DNA from: Cenococcum geophilum
Taxonomy: Eukaryota
NCBI GenBank assembly: GCA_050273025.1
Contig: CP158635.1
Coordinates: 21,328,001-21,392,000, forward strand
Direction: 5' to 3'
Length of the DNA stretch: 64,000 nt
Under the pieces are notes generated by a model that was given only the letters and a program-made list of their open reading frames with translations, was not told the origin of the DNA and did not search any database. Numbering within the stretch: position 1 is the first letter of the stretch; each line of letters opens with the position of its first letter. Position numbers and translations under genes: made by a program. Below, piece by piece: positions 2,922 to 64,000 of this stretch.

Positions 2922-4870
<1,949 letters not shown>

Positions 4871-39986: not shown

Positions 39987-42231
39987 CCCTTGCATTGTTG
40001 ATGTGATATAAAATGTGGCCCGTGCGCGCGATCAAGAACATCGAAACTTCTTCGCGTCAAGTTGTAAATCTATAGCTTCATCAATCAAATACACTACAAT
40101 CATGGTGCGCAATTGTGAAAGTAATGATATAGACTTTGTTCCTTATACCCAACACCCAAAATACGCGTCTCAGAAGTCTCGAAACCCTCCTCCTGAGCCC
40201 TAGCCCTTACCTAATTTCGAACCTCTTCCTATTAAGAACAAAAATACCTATAGCAAGCCGAATCTTCCTTCCAATATTAATAATAGCGACCCTCTATAGC
40301 TATTTAAGCTATTCTTTATAGACGAAATTTTAGATTAACTTGTGGAGTATACAAATAGGAACGCGGAGCTCTACTAGACTCCGGAGGATAAGACTCCAAA
40401 GGGACGCCCGCGGAAGTGGAAGCCAATATTAAGGGCAGAGCTGTATGCATACTTAGCAGTACTAATTCATATAGGGCTATATATAGAAAGTAGCATTAAG
40501 GAGTATTGGCGTAAAGACTTTAGTTATAGCTTAATACACATTATTCGGAACTTTATTAGACTTAATAGATTTCACCAGATTAACCGCTACTTCTACTATA
40601 CCAAACTATAAGAAGATAATAACGAAGCTTTCCGGAATACTTTTAAAAGGATATGGGACCTTAGTAAGCACCTGCGCGTGCTCTATAGGAAGCTCTATAC
40701 CCCTAGTATATACCTTGCCGTCAATAAGATAATTAAACGGTTTACTAGCTAGGCTCCTAAAATCGTTAATATTCCTACTAAGCCGACGCCAGAGGGCTTC
40801 AAAATCTAGGTTTTAGGTAATTAAGGCTACGTTCTTAACTAGATATTCCACGCTAAAGGTAATAAGAAAGGACTATATAATCTGGATAAGGTGTACATAA
40901 AGGAGGAAGGCTTTTCCAAAACGCAGGTAGTAGTACTCGACTTGCTATTATAGAGAGACGACCTTACTAACAAGCCACTTTATCCACCAAATAAACACAT
41001 AGTGTGGCTTAATAACTTATTCATAAGCGTTAAGCTACTCTCTCGGCTTCGAGAGGTCGGAATTGGCGCGTTAGGGACTGTACGCACTACTAAAACAAAG
41101 CGGGAGGAGCAGGAGGAGGCTTCGGGCGAAGTTAAGGCCCAGCATAGAGCTCTAATTAAGTAAATTAGCTCCTCCCTTGCAGAGCTTAAATTGGTATTCA
41201 ACAACTAGATACTATAGGGTTCCTTATATAGAGAGCTTTCTAAAGACTCTACGGTTGCTTAATTTGCCTAGAAAGATTTAAATATAGTACTGTTTATAAG
41301 TACGGTCCTTAACGGTAAGTTTACCTAAACTTAAGATGAGGCTCTGCTACCAAAAATAGTATCTAACGTCATCTATCGCAGGATTTCAATCAATTAAATG
41401 GCCACGACAACGCCCTGCAAAGACCTCTACCGGTGCTGCAATAACTTAGAAGATCTTTAGCAGTAATATAGTTAAGGTATTATAGATTCCGCTATTTATT
41501 AACCTCTACAATTACTATATAAAAGGCGTTAATACTGCTAATTAGATAAGATCTTATTATAGCTCCCTCCAACATTACCGCAAGACTTAGAAGTCTCTAT
41601 TCTACTTCCTCCTTAATATAATTGTTACCAACTACTATAAGCTATCTTCCTACTCTACCAACGGCTGGCTAAAATAAAGTGGTTATAGGAAGTTCCTTAA
41701 ACAACTTATAAACTCTCTATTTAAGCTTTCTACCTAAATACCTTAAAGCAATTATGCGCGGGTCTCTATAGATTAAATATAGTGGTACCCGGCGATACAT
41801 CATAGATATAAGGCAGTTAAAATTAATATAAAGCCAATGACTTGCTCTGCATGCTTAGAGGCAGAAAGAAAGAGCTAAATTAAGAAACCTTTAAGTAGGA
41901 AGCCTCTCTGCGAGCTTTCAGTGAATACAACAAAGAGGTCGCGCGATAGTAAGGAGTTTAAGAGACCTCAAAGGTCACCAAGAATAACGTACGGGTGTAG
42001 ACTCTGTCGAATACCACTTTATAAAGTCGGCCCGTGTTAGCAGGAGCACGTAGATCGGCTCAACACCAAGGAATAAGTGTCTATATGTAATATACACCAA
42101 CATTTCAATATATTCGTAGCTTCAGTTAAGACTTTTAGTGATGTGGCAGAACGATTGACCGCCTAGGAATGCAGCTTATTGATTGGTGCGCACGGGCCAC
42201 AATTTATTGGACGTAAACAACAATGCAAGGG
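39987..42231 (+). mobile_element. piggyBac-like DNA transposon, RIP-degraded
   Basis: TIR CCCTTGCATTGTTG / CAACAATGCAAGGG plus subterminal IR TGTGGCCCGTGCGC. Transposase relics NIPTKPTPEGFKI, HIVWLNNLF, GIGALGTVR and YNYYIKGVN, with a C-terminal Cys-rich domain. ATG about 40102, stop about 42075. Confidence 0.9.
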
Positions 42232-42393
42232 ATACTTAGATTAGGGTATAATATTCATGTGGGCTATCATATTCGTTACGGAGGGTCTACATTCGCCAAA
42301 GTGATGATCTAGTGTTCACACGCTGCTTTCATATCCTCTTTCATGTCAATGCTGCACTTATAAGATCTACTTGGTGATAGTTAAAAGGACTTA

Positions 42394-42593
42394 GGGCCGT
42401 TCGGTTGCGAAAACGTCATATCTGAATTGAAAGTCCGGCAGAAAAAGCGCGTTCCTCCCTGATTTGTCATGCGTCTGTGGCTTTATAAATCGCACGGGTG
42501 TGTGCGATCTAAAGCCTTCAGATTAAGTTGAATTCTGAATCAGGAGCTTTGAGCTCCTTTTCAAAGGATAGAGAAAAGAAAGTGAGCCGCCCT
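42394..42593. mobile_element. Truncated member of the Harbinger-like MITE family
   Basis: Starts TTA|GGGCCGTTCGGTTGC. 42533-42564 is the near reverse complement of 26642-26673 (TTGAAAAGGAGCTCCAAGCTCCTGATTCAGAA). Right end degenerate. Confidence 0.65.
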
Positions 42594-42615
42594 AGGTGTT
42601 ATTATCTACTTCTGC

Positions 42616-43601
42616 CTAGCCCGTGGTGTTGTTAGAAAGCCTGTTAGGTGGTCGCAGATCCTTAAAGTCCATGTTCATAATAACTCCAGCGGCTGCAAAG
42701 CTCCTCTTGTCGGCGGTGACATCCGAAATATCCTGATTAATCTTCAACCCTTCACCTGTTATGTTAACGAATCCTGCCAGGGCCGTACTGTCATCTGTCG
42801 CCCTAACACCTTTGATCTTCTGTCCTGTACGTTCATAGACGGTCCTTGAGAGCGCCTCTTCACATATCCTCCGGAAACTATCATTAGAGGCTTTCTGTTT
42901 CTGTATTTCCTGGAGCAGTTCCTGTCTGCTCAGCTCTGCTTCTTCACTTGGTTGAGTGCTGCTGACTGGCAGCTGCTGTAGGCTGTTCTCTATAGCCGAT
43001 CGTTCGCTTTCCGCTCGGTGAATCTCTCGGTGAATGGCAGCTTCATTCTGCCGCAACATCATATCCTTCATCTCATTCATAAAATACCCCTGCTGGATCG
43101 ATGTAAGACTGCCATCGCGTCAGCCAGAGGCCTTCACATAAATACGTTTCGGTATTCTATAGGAGGACACACGTACATGTGGGCCGTTTGAAGCGTCACA
43201 TTCAGCGTACTCTTACAGTCGCTAAGTTGGGCCCTGAAAGTCTTTATCCTTTCCTGCCTAAAGAGACCCACTCTCCATCTATCCGCCCAGAATATCTTCT
43301 CTTCGGTCGAATGCTTCATCCAGCCACTGAGTAGCATTTGAAAGCCTGTACATGCTCTATTGCAGTTCTCCACAGCGGACTTGACCTCGGCGCTGAGGAC
43401 GATCTGTGAGCCATCGCTTTGAGACGCCGTATCCAATTTACGAAGAACGGGCTCGACTGCTCGTAGATCGAGGTTTATATTCCGAATAGTGTCAGGCGCA
43501 TCCTTAATGTTATCAATTGTGGCAGAAAGGAACTGGACACTCTGGACAGCCGCTCCGGCAATGCCCACAACTGAGGCAGCGGCACCAAGACCATCAGCCA
43601 T
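42616..43601 (-). CDS. HeLo-like (HELL/SesA-type) cell-death effector with C-terminal two-repeat HET-s-related amyloid motif, 305 aa
   Basis: Exons 43601-43177 and 43108-42616, intact frame. N-terminal hydrophobic helix MADGLGAAASVVGIAGAAV and IKDAP motif of fungal HeLo-like N-terminal domains. Tail pseudo-repeats QKIKGVRATDDSTALAGFV and QDISDVTADKRSFAAAGVI, then MDFKDL. Confidence 0.85.
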
Positions 43602-44008
43602 CGCCAAACAGATGTCTTGGACAGGAACGAAATCAGGTACTTCTCAAACACGGGAGAACTCTAGGGCAGCTGCAGAAATGGCCGATGCACACCTTTTTAA
43701 TATGTTGATTGGGTTTGCAGTAGGCAGGTATGGGGACGCAGCGGGACAGCTGAGTTTCAGCCGCAGTATGGTGGGCCATACGCAGTTGCACACGTAGACT
43801 AAGCCACAACCCGAACGTGAGGACGAGCTATCGATTATCTCATCTCTCTCACAGCAGATACGCCTTACAATAACGCCGGCCTTTGCGGACTCGATGCCAA
43901 ACCCGCAACAGCGATCTCCGAAAACCCTAAATACGATGATTCAGCGGAGCGCGTAACATATGTAGGCATCGATGTCGAGCGCTTCGCTGCCCCACCAACA
44001 ATATATTA

Positions 44009-47000
44009 ACGTAGCTGACCGGGAAGCGAGCCACCCCACGTAGCGAGCCACCAAGAATATGCCTTACCATTTTTTATTTCATAGCAAATTACACCAAAAC
44101 CAAAAAGTCTTAGCATATTACACAATGCTAAATTAATCTTTGCCCTCTTATAAAGCCGAAACCACCATATAAATTGTTATATAGGATGTCTCTTCTGGTG
44201 TTGAGCTATCGATTCGCAAGGCCTTAGGCGCCCATAGAGTACCTAGATCTACCGTTAAACAGTCTTATTAGCCGTCTCCCACGATACAAAGCTTACCCCA
44301 GCTTATTGCATCCTTTATAAGAAGAGTAAATTATTAGATGGATTAACGAATGCTAATCCTAGGGCCTTCCGTTAAAGGTTAATATGCTTTTAAAACTAGC
44401 TTATCCCCTTTTAGGAAAAGGCCGAACCGTAGGTAAGTATTAGGGGTAGAGATTTGTTCAACACCACAGTCTTAGTACTATATTAAGTCGTTAGCTTAAC
44501 TACTAGGGAGCTTAAAATAACGATCTGGCAGTTATATATAATTAGTATAGGTTCTTTTATGCCGTATATAAGCAATATTAAGTTAAGTATTTAAATTTTA
44601 TTTATAACTTTAATAAGAAAGGAGTAATACTAGGCCTTATAGCGGTGTCTTAAGTAATTATATCGGGTAAGGCGTATAGAGAGAGGTTAAAAAATTAAAA
44701 AGTTATATAGCTAGGCACTTATAGAATAGTATTTATAATTAAGACAATTTACCCTAATGGCTCTCTACTACCTAACTTTTTAATTTAAAAGGCGTAATAC
44801 TACTAGAAAGAATAGTATTAAATTAGTAAGTAAAATAGGGGCCTTTATAGATATATATAAGCTACCTCCCCTAGTAGGTAAATAGATAACTCTTTAGGCC
44901 TATATTATATTAAATATTATAATAAATATATAAGATATATTATAGAATATTTTAGCGGTAAAATATAGTAATATCGCCTACTTTTAATAGATAATTATTT
45001 AAGCTACTATAAGAGGCCAGCCTGACCAGAACGTATAATTATCTAATCAACAGTGTTACTAGTAAGTAGAAGGTAAGTTAAAGGTAAATAGAAGGTAAGT
45101 TAAAGGTAGAATAAGTTTCATATATTAAAGGACAAATGCTTCTAACCACTTCTATTTAGAGACTAATCGCTAGTTCTTCTCTAGAGGAGAACCAGCTCCC
45201 TATATAATCTTTCTAAAACGCTAGCAAAACCCTTTGCCCCTTATCTGTCTAACCGTGTCTTTTAGGACGTAGATGGAATATAGGTAAGACCTCCTTCTAG
45301 AATATAGATGAGACCTCCTTCTAGAATATAGATGAGACCTCCTTCTGTCTTATCTAATATATACCTTCTAGGGAATTCCGTTACAATTGCCTCCCCTTTA
45401 AGGGTCTTAGTCCTCTAAGACTTCGCCTCTACTAAGCTTTTATAAAGTTCCAGCTAAAACCACTAGGGAAATTCTTAGTAGAAAGGTACTCTATAATGCG
45501 GCTTATAGCTAGTTCTTCACTAGCATAGAACCTTACTTTGTCCTTAGTTCCTCTACTTTTTTCCTACCATAGTTCCCTATAATGCCTTTGTAATGGAACT
45601 AAAATAATAATAATAAAAATTAGATAGGATTTACCTTTCTTATTATAAGAGTTTATTATAAGTTAATCTAGAGGTTGTTCTATACAACGCGTCTATAAGC
45701 TACTATCCCTATTTACCTAAAATGGATTCTAATAATAACATCTTTATTTTAATTTTCTTTCAGTTTATAAGCTGTCGCCTCTTACGCGTCTTTTTATTAA
45801 TAACACTATTTATCTTATCTTTTAGCAGACTGTTTCCTCTATATCTCCGCTTTTAGCTTCCATATCTCTAGCTATTTTTTTTATAGCTGCTTTATTCTCT
45901 TCTTATAACACGTCTATAAGCAATAGGATTCCTACCTTATCTTCTTATAATAATACTAACTTCTTAGAGTATTCTTTTATAATGGCTTATGGTCCCTAAA
46001 CCGGCGGCAGTATTATTAATCTCCCAGTGACGCCCTAGACAGCGTCTATTACTCCTACAGCAGTTTCCCTAAAATACTATTGTCGCTGCGTTTATACTCT
46101 TACGTAAGATTCTTCCTACGTTTATAAGATACCTTACTCTAGTAAAAATAAATCTAAGTGCTCTTATTATTATAGTAGGAGAAAAACCTACGTTCTAGTA
46201 TTTCCCATTCTATCCTATTCTAGATTTCGCTAATTATACTAGATCTTTACTATCTATATATATAAGACTTATAGGCTCTAACGCGCTATCTAAGATTTCC
46301 GCCGATATTTTAATAGTAATAGGCGGGGATAGAAGGTGTCTTCCCTTACTTACAGACTCTTTAATTTTATAAGGGTTTCCATTACTATAGAGACGTAATG
46401 TTCTTAGATATATAGTGTCTAGAAGCGTATATACAAACAGCTTATCCTTATTAATAATAACATTTATACTCTTACGCGGGCTACTCTAGCCAGGTAAGTT
46501 TCTCTAGTAACTTACTTAGGAACTATACTAACTCCTTTAGCTAATATCTCTTTAATCTCTGCTTAGACGCCAATTTAGAACCTAGGGATACTAAGGATAG
46601 CAACAAAGGTTAAGATAAACGTTTTCTTTGCTAGTTTCCCGCCTATGCTAGTCCTTCTAGTACCTATTATTCTAAGAAGAATATTAATAGAAGTGCTAAT
46701 GCTTCTAGGGATAAAGGAGCTAATAATACTATTAATAATAACATTAAGATAGAAGAGGAGGCTCCTGTTATTGCTGTTAGTATTTAAGTTATTACCTAGC
46801 TCTTTCCTTTTTATAAAATAGCTTTATATAGTGCCTCTCGGGTGCCTCTAGGATGCCCTATTATTGGGAATTAACTTTATACTTTAGGGATACCTTTATT
46901 CTAAGCTTCGGTAACAATCTATATAAACGTAGTGCACTATTATAATCCCCATATATAATAAACGGGTAGTATTCCTATAGGTGCCTTATAATTCCTTAAA

Positions 47001-50000
47001 ATTTCTAATTCTTTATAGGCTATCCTTTTGCTCCTCTTTATACCATTAACTCTACTACATATCTCCGGTGCTAGGCTAGATACTCTTCTTTTATCCCTAG
47101 GGGATCTTGCTAAATCCCTAAGGCCACTTCTTATAGTGCTACTACTCCTTCTTATACAGTATCTTCTTTAAATAGTATCCCTAGTAGTTCTTCTATGGAT
47201 TTCTATAGGCTTCCTCTTATAGAATTTTAGGATCCCTATTATAATAGCGAAACATTTCCGTTCTTAATGCCTATACTTAATCCTATAGTTTTAATTTATA
47301 GGGTCTTCCCTATTACTTTACCTATAGTATATCCGGAACCATTTCTAAGTCTTTACCTTTAGTTCTTAGGAAGGTTTTAATTACGGTGTTATATCCCAGC
47401 TAAAGGTACTCCTTAGGTTCCCAACTATTATACGCCTAAAAGTATCCTTCCTAATAAACTAAAAATTCGCGCTTCTTCTAGCGCCATCTTTAGTCTAGTA
47501 TATCTTCTACATTCTATTCTAGTTCCCTATTAATTTTGCTAGGTAGGGGCGGTTCTACACTATCTCTTCTCCAGTATAGCTTTAGTAAGGAAATATAAAA
47601 TATAGGATATATTAGATAAGATTTCGGTAATTCCAATTTATAGGCTTAGTTTCCTTTAGTTTTCTTAACTATCTTAAAGGGTCCGAGCTACTAGTAATCC
47701 AGCTTCTTCTTAATGCGTTTTATTTAGATATTTTTTATAAATAGTAAGACTTCGTCTCCTATCTCAAATTCTTTCGGCATATATTTTTCGTTATAGTACC
47801 TTTTTTATACAGCCTAGGCGTCTAGCAAGTGCTTTTTAAGTTCCTCTCTACGAATTCTTATTTGCTTAATTCTTTTAGACGCCGCTAGTGCCTCTCTTTT
47901 AGAAACAATATCCTTAACGTTCTAGGGGTTATTTGCTTTTACCCCAAACAATGCTTTATAAGGGGTCATTTTTATACTATTATAGATGCTTATATTATAT
48001 ATATGCTACGCTAGAGCTAATTATAATGTCTAATTATCCTGTTAATAATTAATATAGCAGTGGAGGTAGTGTTCCAATAACGCATTTAGACGCTCTATTT
48101 ACCCATCTATTTGCGGGTAAAAGGTAATACTTATCCTTTGCCGTATTTTTAATAAGAGACAGAATAAAGACCAAAATGCACTATTAAATACGGTGCCTCT
48201 GTTAGATATAATTCCCCTTAGCGTACTAAATAAGAGCTACTATTCTAAAAACAGGTCTGCCAGTTCTGCTACTATAATTATTATTATAACAGCAAAGTAT
48301 CCTAAAAACTTTATATACCTATTAACGATTACTAGAATAGCGTTAGTAACCTCTCCAGTTCTTATCTTAGTAGGGGGTAAGCCTATAATAAAATCCATTA
48401 TTAATTCTAATATAGGTCCCTACGGAATAGGAAGTACTAATAACTCGCCGTATAGGTAATGCCTGGATATCTATATCCTTTAGCACGTATTACACCTTAA
48501 TATATAGTCCTTAACCTCTTTAGATATTCCGTCCTAAAAGTATTTCCTTTAAACGGCCTTAAGGGTTCTATTGGCACCGTAGTAACCCCTAAAAGGGTTA
48601 TTATAAAAAACTTTTAGAATTTTGTCTTAAATTACTTGGTCCTTTAGGATATATATAGCACCCTTAAAGCGCAATAAACCCTTTTAGTCTTACTACTATA
48701 GCTTCTTAGTAACTCTGGCTAAGTTGGTCTCTACTATATTTTTCTACCTCTCCCTAGAGGCGAAGGCGTCCCTTTATTAAGCTTAAAGAAGAAGATTTAG
48801 AAAGGTTTTATATAGATTACTTACTTTTATTTTACCTGCCGCTATTATAAACTTAAGGCGTAGCATAAGACGTTTTAAACCATTAGTGCTAGCAGATTCT
48901 CCTACTATTATGCAGTGTGCCACGCTATAGATAGGTATCTCGCTTATCCCCCTTAGATCTAAGAACTCGTAGCTAATGCGCCGTCAAGTCAAAGGTGCCG
49001 CGACACCTCTAGCACATCCTATAGAATTCTCGCTAATTCTAGGGTACGCTAACTTTATAACGTCTGCTTGGTCTATAACCTAGTCTATAACTATATCCTA
49101 CAGCTCTACAATTATATCGCTTCGTAGCTGCATTATTAGGACCTCTGCCCTATTATAAAATTCTATAGTTCTAGGAAAAGAGTCTTCTTTCTTTCTAAGC
49201 AAATTTTGCAATATAGGGATTATTTCCCCTATACTATCCTAGGTCCTCCCTATCTTGTAATCTAGACGTCTTAATAACCTATTAGTAGGATTTGTCTTTC
49301 CTAGGCGGTACGTAATCTTAAAATTGTACTATAATAGTGCCTCTACCTACCTAGCTTATTAACCGCTTAACACCTTTATAGTTATAAAGTATTCTAGGTT
49401 ATTATAGTTTATAAGGACTTTAATGGGATAATTGCTTCCTATATAATAATGTCGCCAGTGCTTTATTACTGCGATTATTATAAGTAGCTTCTAGTCGTGC
49501 GTTATATAACGCTGCTCTATAGGGGTCATTTTCCTTAACTAAAACGCTATAGAATGCTATTTTCCGTCTTTTAATTAAGATATAATTGCCCCTAGGGTAA
49601 AGCCGGATATATCCGTTTTAAGGTATATATATAGCTCCTAGTAGAAGTGTATTAGGATAGGCGCCGACATAAATAAATCCTTTAACCAGTCTATAGCTTA
49701 CTTAGTAGCTTTCCTAAATATAAAGGGTCCTAACTTCCTGCCATTCTTAGATCCTTTTAGTAGATTGGTAATTGGGAGTATTACTTATAAGTAGTAAATA
49801 ATAAACGTTTGGTAGAAGTTTACCGTGCCTAAGAAAACCTATACTTCTCTAAATATTATAGGGTAGGGCTATTCCCTAATAGCGTCCACCCGACTTTTCT
49901 CTATTAACACTCCGTTAACGCTAATGATAAAGCCTAAAAAATTAATGCTAGTAGTATAGAACGTGCACTTTTTTAGGTTTATATAGAGCTTATATTCCCG

Positions 50001-53000
50001 CAGTCTTTCTAGTACTATTCGCACGTAGTGCATATATACTTCGTAGTTATTAGAGTAGACTATAATGTTATTAAGGTAGACTATATATATTATATCTAAT
50101 AGGCCTAACAATACCTTATTAATATAGGCCTAAAATATCGCTAGTGCGTTAGTAAGCCTAAATAGCATTACTAGGTACTTAAAGTGGCCGTACTATATTT
50201 AGAATACCGTTTTCCACTTATTGCCGGCTTTAATTTGGATTTAATAGTATATATCTTTTAGATCCAATTTCGTGAATATCTTTACGCCCAACAGCCTATT
50301 AATAAGCTCCCCTATTAAGGGTAACAGGTAGCGATTTTTTATAGTAATCTTATTTAGCGCCTAATAGTTAATATAAAGGCAAAGGGTCCTATCCTTCTTA
50401 GGTATAAATATAATTGGCGCCCCTACTAGGCTTATAGAGGGCCAAATCCATCCTCTTTAAAGATTGTCTATTATATATTAACGCAGTACCGCTAGCTTAT
50501 TTTCTAATAGGTTATATAGCGGTCTAAAAGGAGGTTGTTTATCCCCTATATTTATCTTATACTTAACTAATATAGGGTTAGGTAAGGTTTATATAGCCTC
50601 TTTACTAGAAATATCCTCTAAGTCCGTATATTCCTATAGAATCTTTAGTTCCTTAACTACGTATAGCCGGATATCCAAAAATAAATATTCTATGTCCCCG
50701 TTCTTAGTGTTAAGAGTGGCATATATAGTATATGCCCACCCTTCTTCTTGCATATAGTTTAAGAAAGTCTCTTAATCTTTAACTATAATACGCGGTTAAG
50801 ACTTCTAATGTTAATACGAGGCTAAAGGCCAATTAATGTCCGGATTAACTTGGTAAAGCTATAGGTATCCCAAAACAAGGTTGTACCCCTTAATTTCTGT
50901 AGTATAGAAGCGCATCTCCTACGTGTCCTATAGACTATCGCGGTCCTAGCTGGCTATAGAAAAAGCCTATTTCTTATAGTATGGAATCTAGTGGCCTTTA
51001 ATGCTTTAAATGGTGCGCACCTGTAAGCCACTAAGGTCCAAATCTAATTCTTTTACTAGTAATTAAGAAATGAACCCTATACTCGCGCCGCTATCTATAA
51101 GGCAGTCTTACGTCACCTATTTATTATTAACTTAAATAGAGACAGGAATAACCATGCGGTAATTTACTCCCTCCTTCTCTTACTAGCCTAGTGTAAGGGA
51201 GTAAAGATCTACTAGGCTGTCTCTTTTCCTAATTAGGCCGACTCTTGCTTCTTCTACTAGTAGAAGCGGCTTATATAGCCCTTCTTGCCGCAGTTATAAT
51301 AGGTGCGTGTCTCCTAGTTTCCCTTTTACAGATTAGGTCTCTGCCTATTGTTATTTTAGGGTTAACTAGCGTTACTCTAGGGCTGCGAGGCCTGCTTACG
51401 TTATCCTTCTATAGAGTAGTTAGGTCGGAATCTGCCCCTATTATTAAAGCTAGGTCTAGTCCTACGCTCTTTATTATTAGCGTCTTATTCCTTTCACTTA
51501 CCTAAATAGTCTCTTTTAGCACTCTTAATCCGAGTAGCTTTAAAGATAAGCTTTTCTTAAGAGGTAGGAATTTCGCCCTTCTCTTATATGGCCTGTTAAA
51601 TCTTAGGTTATAGCTTAGTGAGTAGCTAGTGAAGTTATATAGCGTTATCCCACAGATCTAAATAGGGTATATTATTTTCTAGTTCTTCTAAGTAGTTTAT
51701 AAACTAGACCATAGTCTAACCATCCCGCTATTTAGCGTCGTGGTATTACTGGTTATAGTCTATCCCTTAATTAGTAGGGTTTTAGACCTAATCGACTAAC
51801 CAGGTCCTAAGTTTGCTAAATTTAAAGGGTATAGTAAGTTTCTTCTTATAGCGTGTTTATAAACTCTTAACGGTGCCACGTAGGAAGGTAGAAGTAATTA
51901 GTATCTAATTATACTCATTAGAGTAACGTTTTGGATCTAGCCGAAACTTAGTTTCGCATTATTAAATAAAATAATTATAGTTCCGAAGACTATTACTATA
52001 GTACTTATTAGGTTCCTTTATGCGGAATTTAGGTTTTTCTAACGTTATAGTATAGTATGGCGTTACCCCTTTAAGTCCGCTTCGTGTCTAGGGTGTCTAT
52101 ACTTCCCCTAATTATCCTTATAATTGTTCTTAGTAGTCTTAATATACTTATCTTAATTATATCTCTAACTCCTTTGTTTTTTATAGGGTCTTATATAGCG
52201 ACCGCTTTAATAACTCCCTAGTAATAATTATTTCTAAGGGTCTTATAAGGTTAGACGGACTAGCCGTAGCTTCTTTATAGGAAGAGGGAATGCGCTCCTC
52301 TAGGGAGACTCTTTAAGCCTCTTGCGGTAAGGGCGTTGCTTTATAGGGTACAGGAGTATAGTTTGTTATTATTAATTAATAGCCGTATGTTCCTAACGGA
52401 TTATAAGCGATTAGAATTATAAGAGGCCAGCCTAATTAGAACGTATAATTATCTAATTAACAGTATTACTAGTAAGTAGAAGGTAAGTCAAAGGTAAATA
52501 GAAGGTAAGTTAAAGGTAGAATAAGTTTTATATATTAAAGGATAAATGCTTCTAACCACTTCTATTTAGAGACTAATCGCTAGTTCTTCTCTAGAGGAGA
52601 ACTAGCTCCCTATATAATCTTTCTAAGACGCTAGTAAAACCCTTTACCCCTTATTTGTCTAACTGTGTCTTCTGGGACGTAAATAGAACATAGGTGAGAC
52701 CTCCTTTTGGAATATAGATAAGACCTCCTTCTGGAACATAGATGAGACCTCCTTCTGGAACATAGATGAGACCTCCTTCTGTCTCATCTGATATGTACCT
52801 TCTGGGGAATTCCGTTACAGCTACCTTCCTTAGCAATTCGTTGAGTATACGCTCGCGCGTAAGATTATCTTAGTAGCTTTATTACCTTATTTAACCTATA
52901 AGCTTTAACTACTAGATATAGGTTATTTTAGGCTACTCTTTTACTACTACTGGAAGTAAGTAGATGGCTTCTATTAATATAGCTACTTAGGCGTTAATAA

Positions 53001-53591
53001 GGAACATTTTTAAAGCTTTACCTAAAGGCGTATATGTAGGTATTTACTTTTAATACAATCTATAGCACCTAGAAAGCTATAGGCCTTCTACCTTATAATT
53101 CTACTGCTTTCTTAAAGACTCCTACCTATATAGAGGTAAGCCTAATTCTAATTATACTTACCGGGGTTTAGAACGGCTCTATTTAATATAGCGACGTTAA
53201 GCTTTATAGAATTATTAGTGTCTTTAAAGTACGTAAAGTAGTAGGTATATTTAATTCCTCTATATCCTAGCCATTATAAGGCTCTCTTATATATTTAGGT
53301 GTAACCTGTAGCTTACAAATGAGTGGATTAATGGGTTATTGATCCGGAAAGGGACGTTGTAGGAATATAGTGGTCGCCTGTGCAATTAGTAGGCGCGCGG
53401 GTCTATATCACCACCATAACGTAGTTAAATTAATTTAAGCAATATTGCGATTGAAAGAGTAATATAAAAGCTTCAATTTGGCCTATTTAATATATATATC
53501 AGCTCGTTGTTTTGATTTTATTATAAATTAATCAAATATCACCTGTATGTGGCTCGCTACGTGGGGTGGCTCGCTTCCCGGTCAGCTACGT
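44009..53591 (+). mobile_element. Fot1/pogo DNA transposon (about 1.77 kb net) carrying a nested Gypsy element
   Basis: TIR ACGTAGCTGACCGGGAAGCGAGCCACCCCACGTAGCGAGCCAC at both ends with TA duplication (44007-8, 53592-3). RIPped transposase (YNFNKKG; LLLIDNYLSY, the DGHSSH equivalent) is split by the LTR element. Confidence 0.92.
45008..52819 (-). mobile_element. Ty3/Gypsy chromovirus-type LTR retrotransposon, full length, heavily RIPped
   Basis: LTRs 45008-45385 and 52418-52819 with 5-bp TSD GCTAC. Minus-strand relics in Gypsy order: gag Zn knuckle (about 51270), protease LIDSGA (about 51090), RT YLNN for YLDD (about 50070), RNase H, integrase, chromodomain (about 47410-47530). Confidence 0.95.
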
Positions 53592-55194
53592 TAGCGGTAC
53601 GTCCGCAGCGGACGGCGCACAGGCATTTGCAGGAATCAACCTCGGAAATATATACTATGGGGACACTGCGGCTCGCAAATGTTAGTACATTGAGCTCCTT
53701 GATCCAGTCATCGGGTCTGTCGAGCTAATACTACATTAAGCAACCCCTCTGCAGGCCCCATCCGAACCATTCTCTACCGTCCCCTTTCGACGAGATCCCG
53801 ACTTTGTCGACCGTGACAATGTTCTGATTCAGATTGAACAACGCTGCTCTCAACCGGCTGGTCGTGCTGCGCTTGTCGGCCTCGGCGGTGTAGGGTAAGC
53901 AATCGTAAAACCGTCCGGCGTTTGCCCGGCTAACTTCCATAGGAAATCTCAACTTGCTATCGAGTACTCCTACCGCCTTCGAGGCCGATCACCGCAGACA
54001 TGGGTATTCTGGGTGCACACAAGCAACGCGGCGAGGTTCGAAGCGGCATACAAGAATATCGCGGACAGGCTTCAGCTACCTGGAAGGGATGACACTACGG
54101 TCAATGTGCTCCAACTGGTGTGCAACTGGCTCCGCAGTGAGGGTGATAGACAATGGCTCATTATCCTCGATAACGCCGATAATGAGAGCTTTTTCAATAT
54201 ACAAAGGCATGAGGTGCAAGGTGCAGCGTCTGGGAATACTCATGGTAGGCTGACGCTCGCGGATTTCCTTCCACAGAGCAAGAATGGATCAATCCTTATC
54301 ACATCTAGAAACATGGATGCCGCTGTAAAACTCACCGGCAGTTACAAGGACATTATTCAGATCCAAAAGATGAATCGGGACGAAGGCGTTGAGCTACTGC
54401 GGAAGAAGCTCCGGTGTCCGTTAGATGAACAGGCAATAGAGCTGTTAGCTGCACTTGACTATATACCGTTGGCAATAACTCAAGCCGCGGCCTTTATAAA
54501 CAAGCGCTGGCCTCGAACGACAGTGGCAAGCTATGCGCAAGAGTTACGTACGAACAACAAGAAAAGGGCAAAGCTCCTAAGTCAAGCCGTGGCGGATTTG
54601 CGCCGAGACGAAGAGGCATCTAACTCTATCCTTGCTACATGGCAAATATCCTTTGAGCATATCCGCGAAGAGAAACCGTCTGCTGCCAACCTACTTTCGT
54701 TGATGAGCTTCTTTAACCCGCAGGGGATTCCCGAGTTTCTACTCCGAGGTTACTCGGGAAGCAAACCGAATACTAAAGACGACGATGATGGGGAAGACGG
54801 GTTCGAAGATGACTTAGATTTATTAAGGAGCTACTTATTAGTAATAACAAACGGAAATGGGGACGTCTTTGAGATGCACCGGCTGGTCCAGTTTGCAACA
54901 AGAACGTGGCTCCGATCGTTTGGCGGAGAAGATAGGTGGCGGCGAAAGTTCCTTGCTATCCTATCCAAGGAGTTTCCTACCGGAGAGTTCAGTAACTGGT
55001 CACAGTGCCAGCTGCTTCTTCCACATATTGAGCCCATGGTAGACGAGGAGCCCGTAGACACCGAAGAAGCAAAATACTGGGCGCAAGTTCTGTACAATGC
55101 AGCTTGGTACACGTGGAGTTAAGGACTCTATATTCAGGCAGAAGAGATGATCCAGGGTTCAATATCGGCAAGAACGAGAGTGTTAGGCGTAGAC

Positions 55195-55725
55195 TATATA
55201 GAGACGCTAGCAAGCGTTAGCATTCTGGCGTTAGTGCTGCAATACCAGGGCAAGTACGACGAGGCCGAGCAGATGAACCGACGAGCGCTGGAAAGGAGGG
55301 AGAAGGCGCTGGGGGAAGAGCATCCTTCCACGCTGACGAGCGTTAGCAACCTGGCGTTAGTGCTGCAATACCAGGGCAAGTATGACGAGGCCGAGCAGAT
55401 GAACCGACGAGCGCTGGAAAGGAGGGAGAAGGCGCTGGGGGAAGAGCATCGTTCTACTCTAACGAGCGTCAGCAACCTGGCGGTAGTGCTGCAATACCAG
55501 GGCAAGTACGACGAGGCCGAGCAGATGAACCGACGAGCGCTGGAAAGGAACGAGAAGGCGCTGGGGGAAGAGCATCCTGACACGCTGATGAGCGTCAGCA
55601 ACCTGGCGTTAGTGCTGAAATACCAGGGCAAGTACGACGAGGCCGAGCAGATGAACCGACGAGCGCTAGAAGGGAGGGAGAAGGCGCTAGGGGAAGAGCA
55701 TCCTGACACGCTAATGAGCGTATAT
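55195..55725 (+). repeat. Near-identical 126-bp (42-aa) TPR repeats, about 4 units
   Basis: Repeating unit TLTSVSNLALVLQYQGKYDEAEQMNRRALERREKALGEEHP, visible at both DNA and protein level. Confidence 0.95.
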
Positions 55726-56340
55726 TGCCTTGCATACCTCTACCATCAGCAGAGGCGGTACGATGCTGCGTCCGTGATGTACCAAAGGGCGTGCGATGGG
55801 TATAAGAGAAGGCTTGGCCTAAATCACCCTACCACGGTAGCATGCTGCGACCATTTCGCAAAGATGGTACAAGAGATGCATAAACTTAGACCTCACTTAA
55901 AGGGAAACAGGTGCCGCCCCTCTAAGCTCTTAAAATACCTTCGCAAAGTTATCCCTTAGTAAATAACTCCAATAACTCTCTTTACACAGTATATTAATAT
56001 TTCTTTTATAATCTCTATTACATAGAGGGGTCCGGGGCCGACTGAATATAAGTAGCTAGAATGCTTTTATTAGCGTCTCGCATTTTCTAGAAAGCTCTGT
56101 GGCTTGGTAAAAAGAACTATCTCTAGCGCTTTAGGTGGCGAAAGGTAGGGTTGCATGCTGGGACCGGTAGCTTAGCACAGCCACAAGCCGTTTCTCTTTG
56201 GTTGTAGTTACTTATTGTATCCCCTAACACGTCAGTTTACGTCTATCTGTTATCGATAAGGACTAACCAATTAAATCAACCGAATTGAATCGTCGTGATT
56301 TTGGTGTTCCGCGCACGGACCAAATTCTAGATAGACGCTG

Positions 56341-57763: not shown

Positions 57764-59916
57764 TTATCCGAAAAACCCATGCCCGCCCTCCTGGCTCCCG
57801 TATGTTGTTCCAAACCCTGGCACAGGCCCAGCATCCATATCGTCTAAGTTCAAATAATCGTCCAGCACACCCTCCTGCATGAGTCCCCCGTCCGCACCCA
57901 GCACCGCATCCTGGCCCATGCCGACGCCAACGCCCACACCCATGACCTGCTGCGGGGGCGGGGGGGGCTCGATGCCATCGAAGATGCGCGTGCCAAGCGG
58001 GACGGCACGACCGAGCGCCTCGACGCGCTCAGACTTGCGGTTGCCAGCGACGTTGGCGGCACCGGAGCTGTCGCCGCGGGCGTTCATCCAGGTGCCGGCG
58101 TCGCTGATGTCGCCGCGGCTGAGCGCCTGCTTGAAGGTCGCCGGGTCCTGCAGGATCGGGAACAGGATGCTGGACTCGTACCAGCGGCCCTTGATCTCGG
58201 CGATGTCGAGGCGCGCCTGGACGGATATCAGCTTCCAGTAGCCGAGCGCGCGGATCGTCGGCAGCGTGACGCTGTTGCGCCAGCGCAGGTCCTCGCGCAT
58301 GCGTAGCGGCAGCGCGCGGTCCGACGGCGCGGTCGGCGGCGCCGCCGGGTTCGGCACGTCCAGGCTGCAAAAGGTGTAAATGTCGCCGACGAGGAAGGCG
58401 CCGTAGCGCGAGCCGCCGGGCATGCCGCCGCCGGGCCCCGTGGTGGGCGGCTTGCGGTCCAGGATGTCCGTCACTACCATGACGTCGTTGCCGCTGCCGA
58501 GCCGCAGGCGGACGGGCTCGCCAGCCCAGATCTTCTCGCCGCCTAGGAAGGCCCCGTTCCAGTGCCGTTCCTCGTGGCCGGTGGGTGCGAGCGTGGTTTT
58601 CACCAGGTCGAAGAGCGTGTAGCTCGCGTCGATGGATTTGGCGGCTAGGATTGAGCCGTCGACTTCTAGGTCGCCGTCACTGCCGTATTTGTGCGCGCAG
58701 AGACCTTGCCAGTCGACGAGCTCGTAGGACGCTGGGCGCGTTTGCAGGTAGCTGTGCGTGCAGGGCGGGGCGGACCAGGCGAGCCAGGGCCGGAGCATGG
58801 TTTCCTTGGTTATCGTGACGGCTGGTGGGTGGCCGAAGGGATGAGATAGCGGTTGAATTATATAGCCGCGCATATCGTGCTGGGAGGGGTCTTTCTGAAT
58901 GTAACGGCGAGTAATGACTCCTAGACCCCATGCAGAGCCTCGATCGAACCATATTAATTCGCCGGAACGGAAGATGAATTTGTTGTATTGAGCATCGACT
59001 TGTTGGTCTATGGAGCGAGGCTGTGGGAGAGGGGAGGGAGTAATTGTCCGAGGTATGCTGGGCTGATGTGCCGGAGTGGGTATAGGAGTAGGTATTGGAG
59101 TAGGTACCGGGGTTGCAGGTTTCGAGGTTTGATTTTGGGAGGGTTGACTCTGAACTATTTGGGTTTGCGCCGGTGGTTTCTGGGCAGGTGGATTCTGGGT
59201 TGGCTTCGGGGGAGGACGACGGATTATCTCAACAATAGGGTGGCGGCCTATTCCAGGAGAATTGGATGGTGTCTCCTCCTTCTTGATTGTCGCTGTAGGA
59301 GTGGCTGCTTTAGGTTCCTTGACTGCAGCTGCTTTGTCTCCCTCTAGCTCCTCTGGACAGCACAGCTTGCATGTGCAGTTATTTGGGTCACCAGCCTGGT
59401 CTGTTGTAAGCCATAAGAGGTGTGGGAAGTAGTCCGCAGGACTCCTGAAGCGCTTTTTGGGACCAAGTGGATGGCCATAAAGGTATGCGTCCTGGCGGTC
59501 ATGGCCACCTCCGGAATGGTTTTTGTTTGGCTTGCGGACTGTGGTCCCATCGCCTTCAGTTCCTCTCGACTTTATGTGCTCATAAAGACGGTAATTTTCA
59601 GGGAACTCGTGTAGGATGCTATTTGAGGCTCGATCTAACAGACGTGAGTGGGGAAGTTGGAGGGCATAGGTTTCAACATACCTGCATACTCTGCACCACC
59701 AATTTCTCTCAAGAGCATGCCAGCGAGTTTCCTCCTCCAATCCATATGCTTGACTTCATCTGGGGCTATCTCTCGGTAGTAGTCGCAGACTCCCTTCGCA
59801 TCAGGAGTGCGATCGAGCTGGGCGGCCGTGGGGGCATTCTTCTGCTTGCCCTTGCTCGTCTGCACATCGAGTTTTGCATCAGATCGCCGAACAAACACAG
59901 GGTAGAAACGCGTCAT
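57764..59916 (-). CDS. clr2: Clr2-like transcriptional silencing protein
   Basis: Probable start MTRFYPVFVRRSD (59916), intron 59681-59635. WRRKLAGML, PENYRLYEH and RQDAYLYGHPLGPKKRFRSPADYFPHLLWL...NCTCKLC, plus C-terminal GAFLGGEKIWAGEPVRL and DIAEIKGRWY. Confidence 0.8.
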
Positions 59917-60522: not shown

Positions 60523-63500
60523 ATGATGGATTCACGCAGAGTGAAATTGGGTTCGCCTCTCCCAATCACGCCGACGAAGCGACACCGAGGGACAGTACAA
60601 GACCTGCTCCAGCAATTTGGTTCAACAAACTCTCCTTCCTCAGTTTCACGAGAACGAAAGTTGTCTATGGCAAAGAGAAAAGACTCTCAAAACCGCGAAT
60701 TGAGACAAACCCGTCGAATATCATACAATATCTCCGATAGTTCTGATGCATCGTCATCCCCTAGTGTCTCTTCCGCCTACGAAACCCCCGAGAAGTTACG
60801 ACTAACACCAATGGAGGACACAACTAGTGAGGGTGAGCCACAGCAGCCAGCAATTGCACCTTCATCCGGGCGCTTATTGCGGTCCCGCGCGGTGACTTCT
60901 CAGCGAACAGCCGTGAAGAGTCTGAAGCAGGATACATCTCGACGTCAAACATCTGAAGGAGGACGCAGAGTCAGTGCTCGGCAGGCCAAAACGATTCTGA
61001 CATCAGATGCACATGTGGTGGAAAGCAAGAATCTAACTAAAGCCGTCAAGCCGAAGATCGAAACCTCGCGAACTCGACTCAGGGATGAGATTGCCACTCA
61101 AACAATGGCGAGGAAGGACAACTTTCTGGTTGCAAATAAGGATTACTTCCTTCCCCTCCTACCTGAGCACAACTATGTTGCAAAACTTGCTTCCAGCCGA
61201 CGCAATTCTAAAGCTTCAATCGTCGAGTACACTCAAATAGAAGAACAACCGAAAAAGTAGGTTTGCTCTTATGACTCAAAAGTTGAAGCTAAGTATTATC
61301 TAGTATTACCGCTACGATGAAGCCTTATCAACTAAGTGGGCTTTCATTTCTTGTTCATCTCCACAATAATGGAATGTCAGGAATGCTAGGAGACGAAATG
61401 GGTCTGGGCAAGACTCTCCAAACTCTGTCACTTTTTCAGTATCTAGAGGAACGAGATCGAGCTTTGTCAGCCTCATCCGAAGAGAATCGACCATATCTTG
61501 TAGTTTGTCCTCTCGCTGTTCTTGGATCTTGGGTGAGCGAAGCCCGCAAGTGGGTTCCCGGATTGAAAGTTCTTCGTTTCCATGGTACGCTCAACGAACG
61601 AAATCGCCTCAAAAAGGTTGCCACAGGAGAGGAAGATTGGTACGGCAACAAGACCACTCAATCTAAGAGACGGAAAGCAGATCGGAAGTCAGGCAAGAAA
61701 GTCTCCAAGCTTGCGGGTAGTGAACAGACTAAGGAAAGCTACAAGATTGTAGTCACCAGCTACGAACAGTTCGTTGCCGAACAAAGCTGGTTTAAAAAGT
61801 CATTCGTCTGGCGATATGTAGTGCTTGACGAAGGCCACAAAGTCAAGAATAATGTGACTCAGGTTTCTACCGCTCTTCAAAGTCTGAAAGCTGAGTATCG
61901 GCTGATTCTCACTGGCACGCCACTGCAAAACAACCTTCACGAGATGTGGGCACTTCTTCATTGGTTATATCCGGAAGTCTTCACTGAGAATAGTGCTGAG
62001 CTGTTCAAATCATCTTTCGACTTGAATCGTGGCAAAGTCAGCACAACAGTCATGGATGACGCACGCCGATTGTTGGAGCTCATCATGCTCCGTCGCATGA
62101 AAAACAGTCCCGAAGTGAATCTTGGCCTTCCTCCGAAGGAAGAGATCCTACTTTACGTCCCTCTCACTCCGATGCAGCGCTTCTGGTACACTCGCCTTCT
62201 GACTCGTATGGGCGACGGAATGCTTAACGACCTCTTCTCGGATGTTAAGAATAAAGAGAAAGATGCTTTAATGAAGGATGCTCAGGAAGATGAGCGCTTG
62301 GCGCAGGTGGAAGAGCTGGAAAAGCGTGCAGATGAGAGGCCTGATGAGTGGCAAGAGACTCGCGAGATCATGCTTCAAGCGCTTGAGCAAGAACACAAAG
62401 ACTCATCAACTAAGGGAGCCTGGCAAAGACTAATGAACCTGATCATGCAGCTTCGCAAATGTTGTAGTCATCCGTATCTCCTCCCTAACGCGGCGCCTGA
62501 ACCATATCATCTTGGTGAGCACATTATTCGTGCTTCTGGGAAGTTTATCGTGCTGGAAAAACTGCTCAAGGAGTCGATTTTAGTAAGGGGCAAGAAAACT
62601 CTAATTTTCTCTGGTTTCACCAGAACCCTTGATTGCTGCGAGGATTTACTCACTTTGATGGGCGGCCATGGAGAGTCATTCAGATATCTTCGATTTGACG
62701 GTCAAACTGGGAGAGCACGGCGGAATCTGGGCATACGCATGTTCAACGACCCCACGTCTGAGTATAAGGTGATGCTGCTTTCTACTCGAGCTGGTGGTCT
62801 TGGCATCAACCTCGCTTCTGCCACCGAAGTCATCTTCATGGATGAGGATTGGAATCCTCAGATCACCCTTCAAGCAGAAGCTCGAGCTCACCGCATTGGG
62901 CAAGCCCAGCCTGTTACGGTCTATAAGCTCTGTACGCAAGGCACGGTAGAGGAGCAGATGATGGGCCGTATACGAAAGAAGCTTTATCTTTCAGCAAAGA
63001 TTACCGAATCCATGCGCAATATCCACAGTGAATCTCAAGAAACCAAAACCAGCAAGCGGAAGAATGGTGCTCAAAGCACCACAGACGACATGCCGCAACT
63101 TGACACATCCCAACTCAAATCACTTGTCCGACGAGGTGCGCAAACACTATCACATCCTGAAATCGATGTCACTGAAATGCTCTCCTGGGACCTTAAGACA
63201 ATGCTGGAGAAATGTCGTGACAAGCCCTCTGACCCGCATATTGGGGCCGAATCCGCTACAAGCACGGACGTCGACGAGGAGAAATGGCTTTCCGTAATGG
63301 AACGGGTCGAATGCGCCATTTTTGACGGGAAGAGATATCAGCGCACACTTGAGGCTGAAGGCAAAGCCAATATCCTCCCTAACGAGATTACTCGAGAAGA
63401 CAGACGCAAGGGCAAGAACACGACCGTCATGATCGATGGGTTCGCCATCAACAAGGAATCTCTCAACTGCGCAGACTGGGAAGCCGTGCCCACGATGGCA

Positions 63501-64000
63501 GGCAAAGATCCTCGTCTCGCAGAGCCCATACGAGAGAAGAAAGCCGAAATCAGCCATGAGGAACACTGTCACACCTGTTATGATGGTGGAGAGCTGGTTC
63601 TCTGCACTGGCTGCCCACGGTCATATCATAAGGCGTGTCTATCTCCAGAATTCCAAGCCCGACTCAAAGGTTGGCGCGGTTTCTACTGTCCACAACATGA
63701 ATGCGCCGACTGCGGAAAGAAGACCTCCGATTCAGGTGGCATGCTTTTTCGCTGTAGATGGTGCGCGAGAGGTTACTGTGAGGATTGCCTCGAGTGGGAT
63801 AAGACAGTGCTTGTGGGAGAAACCATACCCGAATACGAGATGTTGGGTGAGGGAGCAAACAAACAGGCGTTCTTTATCCGTTGTCCGCCTTGTGGGGAGT
63901 GGTGTAACGAAGACCCTGCGGCTAAGGAATGGTTTGAGGGTATGGAAAAAACTTATAAAGAGCAACACGCAGAATGGGTTGACGCGACGGAGGCAAGCAG
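60523..64000 (+). CDS. SNF2-family chromatin-remodelling ATPase with C-terminal PHD-type fingers; 3' end outside window
   Basis: Intron 61257-61303. GDEMGLGKT, VLDEGH, LTGTPLQNN, LSTRAGGLGINL and QAEARAHRIGQ, then CHTCYDGGELVLCTGCPRSYHKACL and FYCPQHECADC. Frame stays open to the window end. Confidence 0.9.

Follow-up and report, generated by a model that had tools for sequence, protein, structure and literature searches.

We analysed a 64,000-nucleotide stretch of Cenococcum geophilum DNA (GenBank assembly GCA_050273025.1, contig CP158635.1, positions 21,328,001 to 21,392,000 of the forward strand), hereafter the window. It holds a gene for a HeLo-like effector on the minus strand and, next to it on the plus strand, the remains of a NOD-like receptor (NLR) gene with NB-ARC and TPR parts. 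A first-pass annotation made from the letters alone had proposed that the two form an amyloid-signalling pair, in which two repeats at the effector C-terminus (R1 and R2) match a motif at the NLR N-terminus (R0) whose halves are separated by transposon DNA.

An intact effector gene and a disrupted receptor gene lie head to head

The start codons of the two genes (43601 on the minus strand and 43972 on the plus strand) are 370 bp apart and the effector reading frame is unbroken, in agreement with the first-pass annotation. The features of both genes and of the DNA inserted into the receptor gene are listed in Table 1.

Table 1. Features of the effector gene, the receptor gene and the insert (positions in the window)
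Feature	Position	Strand	Evidence or remark
HeLo-like effector gene	42616..43601	-	ORF, Pfam PF17111 and RNA splicing; intact, 305 aa
Effector exon 1	43601-43177	-	ATG at 43601
Effector intron	43176-43109	-	single, 68 nt, GT..AG
Effector exon 2	43108-42616	-	stop included, 42618-42616
R1, first 21-residue HRAM2 pseudo-repeat, TGQKIKGVRATDDSTALAGFV	42828-42766	-	49.9 bits on family profile
R2, second 21-residue HRAM2 pseudo-repeat, INQDISDVTADKRSFAAAGVI	42741-42679	-	49.6 bits on family profile
Divergent intergenic region between both start codons, 370 bp	43602..43971	.	ATG positions
NLR exon 1, first piece, MSSASLPHQQYI and first base of a Ser codon	43972..44008	+	has first 16 nt of R0 (43993-44008)
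Nested transposon insert inside NLR codon 13, mid-R0	44009..53593	.	inverted ends, TA duplication, composition
Outer element inverted ends, 45 nt, 100% complementary	44007-44051 and 53549-53593	.	outer two bases read as TA duplication
Inner LTR retroelement, left LTR	45008-45385	.	direct repeat
Reverse-transcriptase remnant of inner LTR element	49872..50129	-	PF00078 RVT_1, E 6.2e-11
Inner LTR retroelement, right LTR	52418-52819	.	~93% identical to left LTR; repeats ~380-400 bp
NLR exon 1, second piece	53594..53680	+	has last 47 nt of R0 (53594-53640); joint 53680>53741 in X7 and X13 contigs
NLR intron 1	53681-53740	+	spliced in RNA
NLR exon 2 (PFSTVPF...GLGGVG, start of P-loop)	53741..53893	+	both flanking introns spliced
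NLR intron 2	53894-53941	+	spliced in RNA
NLR exon 3: remaining NB-ARC, DUF7779, five TPR units, to stop	53942..55959	+	Pfam, homologues
In-frame TAA nonsense codon between NB-ARC and TPR parts	55120-55122	+	context WS*GLYIQAEEM
Tandem TPR array, 126-bp unit, 4.1 copies, 92% matches	55204..55721	+	tandem repeat
ORF, open reading frame; HRAM, HET-s-related amyloid motif; LTR, long terminal repeat; X7 and X13, RNA runs described below.

The coding sequence of the effector is 918 nt long with zero internal stops as read from its ORF. Pfam recognised PF17111, a family previously called HeLo-like N-terminal and at present named PigL_N, on exon 1 (residues 2-140, 80.1 bits, E 2e-22, cut-off 27.2), and through this match the effector has one of the N-terminal domains (HeLo, HeLo-like or SesA) expected of HRAM effectors. 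Its last 75 residues consist of R1, an 8-residue loop, R2, and the tail MNMDFKDLRP.

When 44008 was joined to 53594, an open frame was obtained (MSSASLPHQQYISGTSAADGAQAFAGINLGNIYYGDTAARK), in which R0 takes up residues 8-28. Homologues start with MSSAPLPHQQYISG..., like the first piece of NLR exon 1. The Walker A motif GLGGVGKS straddles exons 2 and 3. Pfam, applied to exon 3 by itself, matched DUF7779 (40.3 bits), TPR_12 (246 bits) and TPR_10 (220 bits), with five TPR units, and PF00931 is precomputed for many NLR homologues at about 50% identity. In the present genome the frame from the ATG at 43972 runs for 12 codons before it enters foreign DNA, and it meets a stop after 23 codons within the element. 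Downstream of the insert a Met first occurs in frame at residue 204, well beyond R0 and the P-loop, and is followed by the TAA at 55120, which the first-pass annotation had overlooked. At the position of this TAA, the 92%-identical homologue P0001 has Q (WSQGLYIQAEEM). The NLR is therefore cut twice, at codon 13 and by the TAA, and of the two genes only the effector is able to give a full protein. As read from this genome, the receptor cannot be made and its gene is a pseudogene; the effector is therefore orphaned, unless an NLR elsewhere supplies a compatible R0.

The TPR part differs in length between homologues, with five units in the window and more in P0001 (eight, counted by eye). High internal conservation and changes in repeat number have been described for fungal NLRs (PMC13449251), and the TPR array of the window fits that description.

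R0 resembles R1 and R2 far beyond chance

The three motifs aligned without gaps, and identities were 8/21 between R0 and R1, 7/21 between R0 and R2, and 8/21 between R1 and R2. A search with effector exon 2 among 1.84 billion representatives yielded 125 relatives at E<=0.001. These were aligned to the last 100 residues of the effector, and 91 gap-free R1 and 86 gap-free R2 segments (85 distinct) were used for a position matrix from which the window's own motifs were excluded. Alignment-based extraction was chosen because the profile should not be shaped by R0; it replaced a scan of the effector relatives with a hand-made pattern, which had found the motif in just 59 of the 125. The consensus of the relatives was TGQxIxxVKATxxSxALAGxI for R1 and IxQDISDVxADxxSxAxAG for R2.

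On this R1/R2 profile R0 scored 16.2 bits, a value reached by 0 of 2,000,000 random 21-mers (maximum 12.5) and by 1 of 200,000 shuffles of R0. It ranked third among the 46,098 stop-free 21-mers in six frames of the window minus the insert, directly after R1 and R2, with the fourth at 0.7 bits. The profile penalised the N at position 21 of R0 (-7.5) and the A at its position 14 (-2.8). These results showed that the likeness of R0 to R1 and R2 is far beyond chance. R0 contains one charged residue and R1 and R2 five each, in agreement with the trend to fewer charged residues in r0 reported in PMC4518210. HRAMs of NLRs mostly start at positions 5-9 (PMC9815663), and R0 starts at residue 8. Once the insert is removed, the NLR adjacent to the effector has one matching motif at its N-terminus, R0 at residues 8-28.

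Transcripts confirm the gene models and reveal the empty site in a diverged relative

In three RNA runs, X7, X13, and X14, the contigs match the window without a difference. A further run, X21, consists of raw stranded RNA reads whose fit to the window is 90-99%, with no read reaching 99%, and its source is a diverged relative. The effector intron was spliced out (joint 43108>43177) in X7, X13, and X14 contigs and in 16 raw X21 reads. The second NLR intron was spliced (53893>53942) in X7, X13, and X14 contigs, and the first (53680>53741) in X7 and X13. Since introns are missing from these contigs, they represent transcripts and the gene models are right. One X7 contig, spanning 42280-44035, continues from the effector past the left junction and reaches into the inverted end; the X7 material thus contains the insert. 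No joint across 44008/53594 was found in the three window-identical runs.

In X21, 10 raw reads join 44005>53591 and are letter-identical to the empty site predicted from the TA duplication. A second form of the empty site occurs in 9 more reads with two synonymous differences; both forms encode QQYISG and may be alleles, paralogues or forms from two strains. Coverage by X21 is 12-29 fold on the effector, with the first mate on the plus strand, and 3.5-10 fold on the NLR, with the first mate on the minus strand, as expected of a divergent gene pair sequenced from a standard stranded library. The diverged relative behind X21 carries and expresses an uninterrupted receptor. Two 3-nt deletions also mark the X21 reads, one in the effector tail at 42647 and one in the NLR at 54778, and the reads diverge from the window upstream of 43971.

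The insert is a nested element with a RIP signature

The outer two bases of the inverted ends are read as the TA target duplication, which would leave an element of 9,583 bp. Pfam recognised no transposase on 14 ORFs of the insert, the sole match being RVT_1 in one of the 14, which leaves the inverted ends and the TA duplication as the features by which the outer element is classed. The insert has a G+C content of 34.5%, TpA/ApT of 1.63 and (CpA+TpG)/(ApC+GpT) of 0.49; the two indices are 0.75 and 1.34 for the effector and 1.0 and 1.13 for the NLR. By the commonly used thresholds of these indices, the composition of the insert reads as the signature of repeat-induced point mutation (RIP).

RIP leakage was considered as a cause of the TAA at 55120 and rejected, in that the genes bear no sign of RIP and a single C>T is not attributable. 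Across the X21 reads overall, changes from window T or A to read C or G (T>C 40, A>G 49) were matched by the reverse (C>T 45, G>A 54), and no excess was seen.

With the nested LTR element subtracted, some 1.8 kb remain for the outer element, a size at which it may be non-autonomous. In an X7 contig another left flank is joined at 44007, pointing to further transcribed copies of the element in the genome. A 24-bp tandem repeat lies within both LTRs (45276-45346 and 52686-52781), one LTR having 3.0 copies and the other 4.0. Two other AT-rich, RIP-like blocks are found at 33000-35000 and 40000-42200 (TpA/ApT 1.41 and 1.50, G+C 0.38-0.39). One of the RIP-like blocks lies directly downstream of the effector, and the X7, X13, and X14 contigs break at 42169-42215.

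Uninterrupted receptors and pairs occur in relatives

A search with NLR exon 2 (50 aa) gave 290 relatives, 120 of them listed. We scored 117 on the R1/R2 profile (116 newly fetched and P0165), leaving out three listed relatives that were also among the NB-ARC homologues. A 21-mer of at least 8 bits was present in 13 of the 117, at residues 5-9 in 11 of those 13. P0261 begins with MSSAPLPHQQYISGTSATGGAQAFAGIN, shares 19/21 residues with R0 and reads on to GLGGVG uninterrupted, and the N-terminus of P0260 is likewise uninterrupted with 16/21 R0 residues identical. P0262 is identical to R0 at 15/21 positions yet scored 0.8 bits, and the R1/R2 profile therefore misses some true r0 motifs. Among the relatives are full-length NLRs for which NB-ARC and TPR domains are precomputed, for example P0276, P0283, and P0332.

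The last of these, KAF1982495.1 of Aulographum hederae CBS 113979, lies, like an effector homologue (P0134, KAF1982496.1), on a contig of 238,956 bp; the two genes are very likely adjacent, judging from their consecutive accessions. As in the window, the A. hederae effector carries R1 and R2, and the 894-aa NLR has R0 at residue 8 followed by NB-ARC and TPR. Unlike the window, the A. hederae pair is uninterrupted, and its effector is more distant, with 51% identity over exon 2. Uninterrupted pairs in relatives, for which the first-pass annotation had advised a search, were thus found, with A. hederae as an example and the N-termini of P0261 and P0260 in addition. The reconstruction of R0 across the insert in the first-pass annotation was borne out by the empty-site reads, the inverted ends with TA duplication, and these uninterrupted homologues; its gap-free alignment of R0, R1 and R2 also held.

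In the NB-ARC homologue search, the four closest among the matches listed (68-92% identity) were ORF calls starting inside exon 3 and are therefore uninformative on R0. The R0 pattern was present in the first 120 residues of none of the 120 NB-ARC homologues listed, whose N-termini were HeLo-like, HET, SesA, sigma or a different short motif, and the best 21-mer anywhere in these 120 scored 2.1 bits. Many of the NB-ARC/TPR homologues (P0012, P0015, P0021, and others) start with …FHGxIDGHxxIPxxHxxxGGTxNFNF… in place of R0, presumably another class of amyloid-signalling motif. P0165 (154 aa) matches both the effector exon 2 region and NLR exon 2 and contains, at residue 95, a 21-mer like R1 (22.1 bits). 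This single ORF may be a chimeric call, or an NLR whose N-terminus carries a longer extension resembling the effector.

The motif belongs to the described HRAM2 class

HRAMs were defined as motifs with G19 and with hydrophobic residues in positions 5, 8, 10, 16, and 18 (Daskalov, Dyrka & Saupe 2015, PMC4518210), the effectors having two 21-residue pseudo-repeats in their last 80 residues with a loop of 6-18 residues. In the same paper, position 3 tells three of the classes apart, being N in HRAM1, Q in HRAM2, and H in HRAM3, and HRAM4 and HRAM5 are marked by Q at 18 or 16. R1 and R2 each have I5, V8, A10, A16, A18, and G19 and are separated by a loop of 8 residues. All three motifs have Q3, I5, A10, A16, A18, and G19 and either V or T at 8; their Q3 and the lack of Q at positions 16 and 18 are as in HRAM2. 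Supplement 2 of PMC4518210 lists the Aspergillus fumigatus homologue of the effector twice (KEY82242 and Afu8g05770), and Table 1 of that paper has two HRAM2 entries for the species and no other class; the family is therefore HRAM2.

The other classes did not fit. HRAM1, the canonical HET-s prion domain, differs in position 3, which is Q here, and effector exon 2 has no PF11558 match. The hallmarks of HRAM5 (HELLF), QxFG and QG (bioRxiv 2020.07.06.188508), are missing from the repeats, which read QKIK/QDIS/QYIS and end in AG. The sigma motif (PF17046, PF17106) had no match at E<=1 on effector exon 2, nor at E<=0.1 on the R0-bearing ORF 53527-53682. The pseudo-palindromic N/G/Q pattern of the PP motif was not apparent in the repeats on inspection by eye. 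A comparison with HRAM, sigma and PP motifs had been proposed by the first-pass annotation, which could not say whether the motif was described or new; it led to HRAM2 and away from HRAM1, HRAM5, sigma and, by eye, PP. The idea of a new variant did not hold, and we assign the motif by its sequence to the described HRAM2 class, of which Afu8g05770, together with its r0, is a member in the 2015 data set.

Comparison with named systems

The closest named counterpart is the A. fumigatus pair. Afu8g05770 (AFUA_8G05770) is a PF17111 effector of 303 aa, as against 305 aa here, with identities of 61% over exon 1 and 59% over exon 2. Its r1 (TGQKIKGVKATNHSSSLAGFI) and r2 (IDQDISDVTADNWSVAAAGVI), and the r0 of the adjacent NLR (HQVSINNTSATDGGQTFAGVN), are given in PMC4518210. 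Counted by eye, r1 is identical to that of the window at 15/21 positions and r2 at 17/21, and both proteins have the 8-residue loop and the xNxxFKDLR tail. The adjacent-NLR r0 is identical to R0 at 13/21 positions, and the r0 of an Aaosphaeria arxii pair (PMC4518210, supplement 2) at 14/21, both by eye. R0 is thus closer to published r0 motifs than to its own R1 and R2, as expected if r0 is an orthologous lineage. The window differs from A. fumigatus in that its NLR is split by the 9.6-kb transposon and has the nonsense codon; the A. fumigatus NLR was compared through its r0.

NWD2/HET-S of Podospora anserina resembles the window in that one of two divergent neighbours, the NLR, has a single N-terminal r0 matching two C-terminal 21-residue repeats of the other, the effector, with a core pattern of G at 19 and hydrophobic or small residues at 5, 8, 10, 16, and 18, and in that nwd2 is a transposon-broken pseudogene in het-s haplotypes. 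The two systems differ in their domains: HET-S has HeLo, as against HeLo-like here, and NWD2 is NACHT-WD40, as against NB-ARC/TPR. HET-S is HRAM1, with N at position 3 and a match to PF11558, which the effector of the window lacks. The insertion in nwd2 leaves a scar of about 0.5 kb, whereas here a 9.6-kb nested element sits within R0 itself.

FNT1/HELLF of P. anserina (HRAM5) likewise has a HeLo-like effector adjoining an NLR. When solved structures were searched with a profile from 14 short members of the family, 6EKA, the prion domain of HELLF, was the top chain, with both repeats in register, at E 0.4 only; the second match was an unrelated chain (E 0.95). QxFG and QG of HELLF are replaced here by QxI[KS] and AG.

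Interpretation and alternatives

Taken together, we interpret the locus as an HRAM2-type amyloid-signalling pair of the NWD2/HET-S kind in a decayed state, with a probability of about 0.88. By homology to NWD2/HET-S (PMC4344463), the NB-ARC/TPR receptor as built would oligomerise on activation. The clustered N-terminal R0 motifs (residues 8-28) would then fold into a rung resembling that of a beta-solenoid, and this fold would act as the template on which the C-terminal R1 and R2 of the neighbouring HeLo-like protein adopt it as well; the N-terminal domain of that protein would in turn permeabilise the membrane and kill the cell. In this genome, a TA-duplicating element, which was later invaded by an LTR retroelement and is heavily mutated by RIP, lies in codon 13 in the middle of R0. 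With a nonsense codon of the CAA>TAA type ahead of the TPR array and an effector that is intact, spliced, and transcribed, the effector would be left as an orphan. The proposal that this is a pair with the architecture of NWD2/HET-S and FNT1/HELLF was therefore upheld for architecture and ancestry, and fails for a working pair, given the insert in codon 13 and the TAA.

Several points weigh against this interpretation. No experimental amyloid formation or templating was found for the effector or for other HRAM2 members in the portions of the HRAM literature covered. The HRAM2 label is taken from Table 1 and supplement rows of PMC4518210. No Pfam model recognised the repeat region, with no PF11558 match at E<=1 on exon 2, and the 6EKA match is not significant alone. 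On exon 3 alone NB-ARC scored 17.0 bits, under the Pfam cut-off of 23.5. Transcription alone cannot separate live from dead genes, as the receptor remnant is still transcribed and spliced. Beyond the 64-kb window there may also be a second NLR, intact and bearing R0.

Such an NLR would mean that the effector is not orphaned, being triggered through a compatible HRAM2 R0 encoded elsewhere, which would add to the decayed-pair interpretation and not exclude it. The effector ORF is intact, spliced, and transcribed in the three window-identical runs, genomes exist with more HRAM motifs on the NLR side than on the effector side and signalling between unlinked genes has been suspected (PMC9815663), and no adjacent NLR was found for 57 of the 155 HRAM effectors of PMC4518210. 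On the other side, no further 21-mer in the window scored above 0.7 bits, and we consider a remote trigger possible, although on balance unlikely.

Considerably less probable is an exaptation like that of het-s, in which the effector would have been retained after loss of the receptor, as a prion-like element of allorecognition that reacts with strains whose pair is intact, the two forms being held as a balanced polymorphism. An exact precedent exists, in that all wild het-s strains have an nwd2 disrupted by a repa/yeti LTR insertion (PMC4344463, PMC13449251), and broken and intact haplotypes of the present pair both exist and both express the effector. However, there is no sign that the HeLo-like domain has lost toxicity, and X21, 1-10% diverged, may be another species, so the two forms need not be a polymorphism within one species. 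If true, exaptation here would mean that a het-s-like system has arisen independently a second time, in another HRAM class and another lineage of fungi.

That the pair still works, through removal of the insert from the transcript or through restart of translation downstream, is very improbable. The downstream NLR exons are transcribed and correctly spliced, but the window-identical runs contain no 44008/53594 joint, the X7 contig reads into the element, and a restart at residue 204 would omit R0 and the P-loop and still meet the TAA at 55120. Finally, a chance likeness of R0 to R1 and R2, created by joining two unrelated pieces, might be argued from pairwise identities of just 7-8/21, but it is refuted by the profile statistics, the empty-site reads, the uninterrupted homologues (19/21), and published r0 motifs identical at 13-14/21.

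Neighbourhood

Chromatin-related genes elsewhere in the window (3462-4661, 57767-59755, and 61293-63998) encode a MYST histone acetyltransferase, a Clr2 silencing protein, and a SNF2 helicase with a PHD finger. Between them lie a sugar transporter gene, an FAD-synthase-like gene, and a metallophosphoesterase gene.

Significance

The locus is one more pair in a family catalogued in 2015, and it leaves knowledge of fungal amyloid signalling unchanged. What it adds is a natural knock-out, with a transposon inside the 21-residue templating motif itself and the intact allele expressed in a relative. The broken and intact forms make a matched pair for asking whether an HRAM2 effector needs its neighbouring receptor. 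Gene callers will miss such links where an element splits a very short first exon. Fungal NLRs are often pseudogenised by transposons in a strain-dependent manner (PMC13449251), and a receptor broken by a transposon next to an effector that is kept repeats the nwd2/het-s pattern, which bears on how frequently such pairs decay or are exapted.

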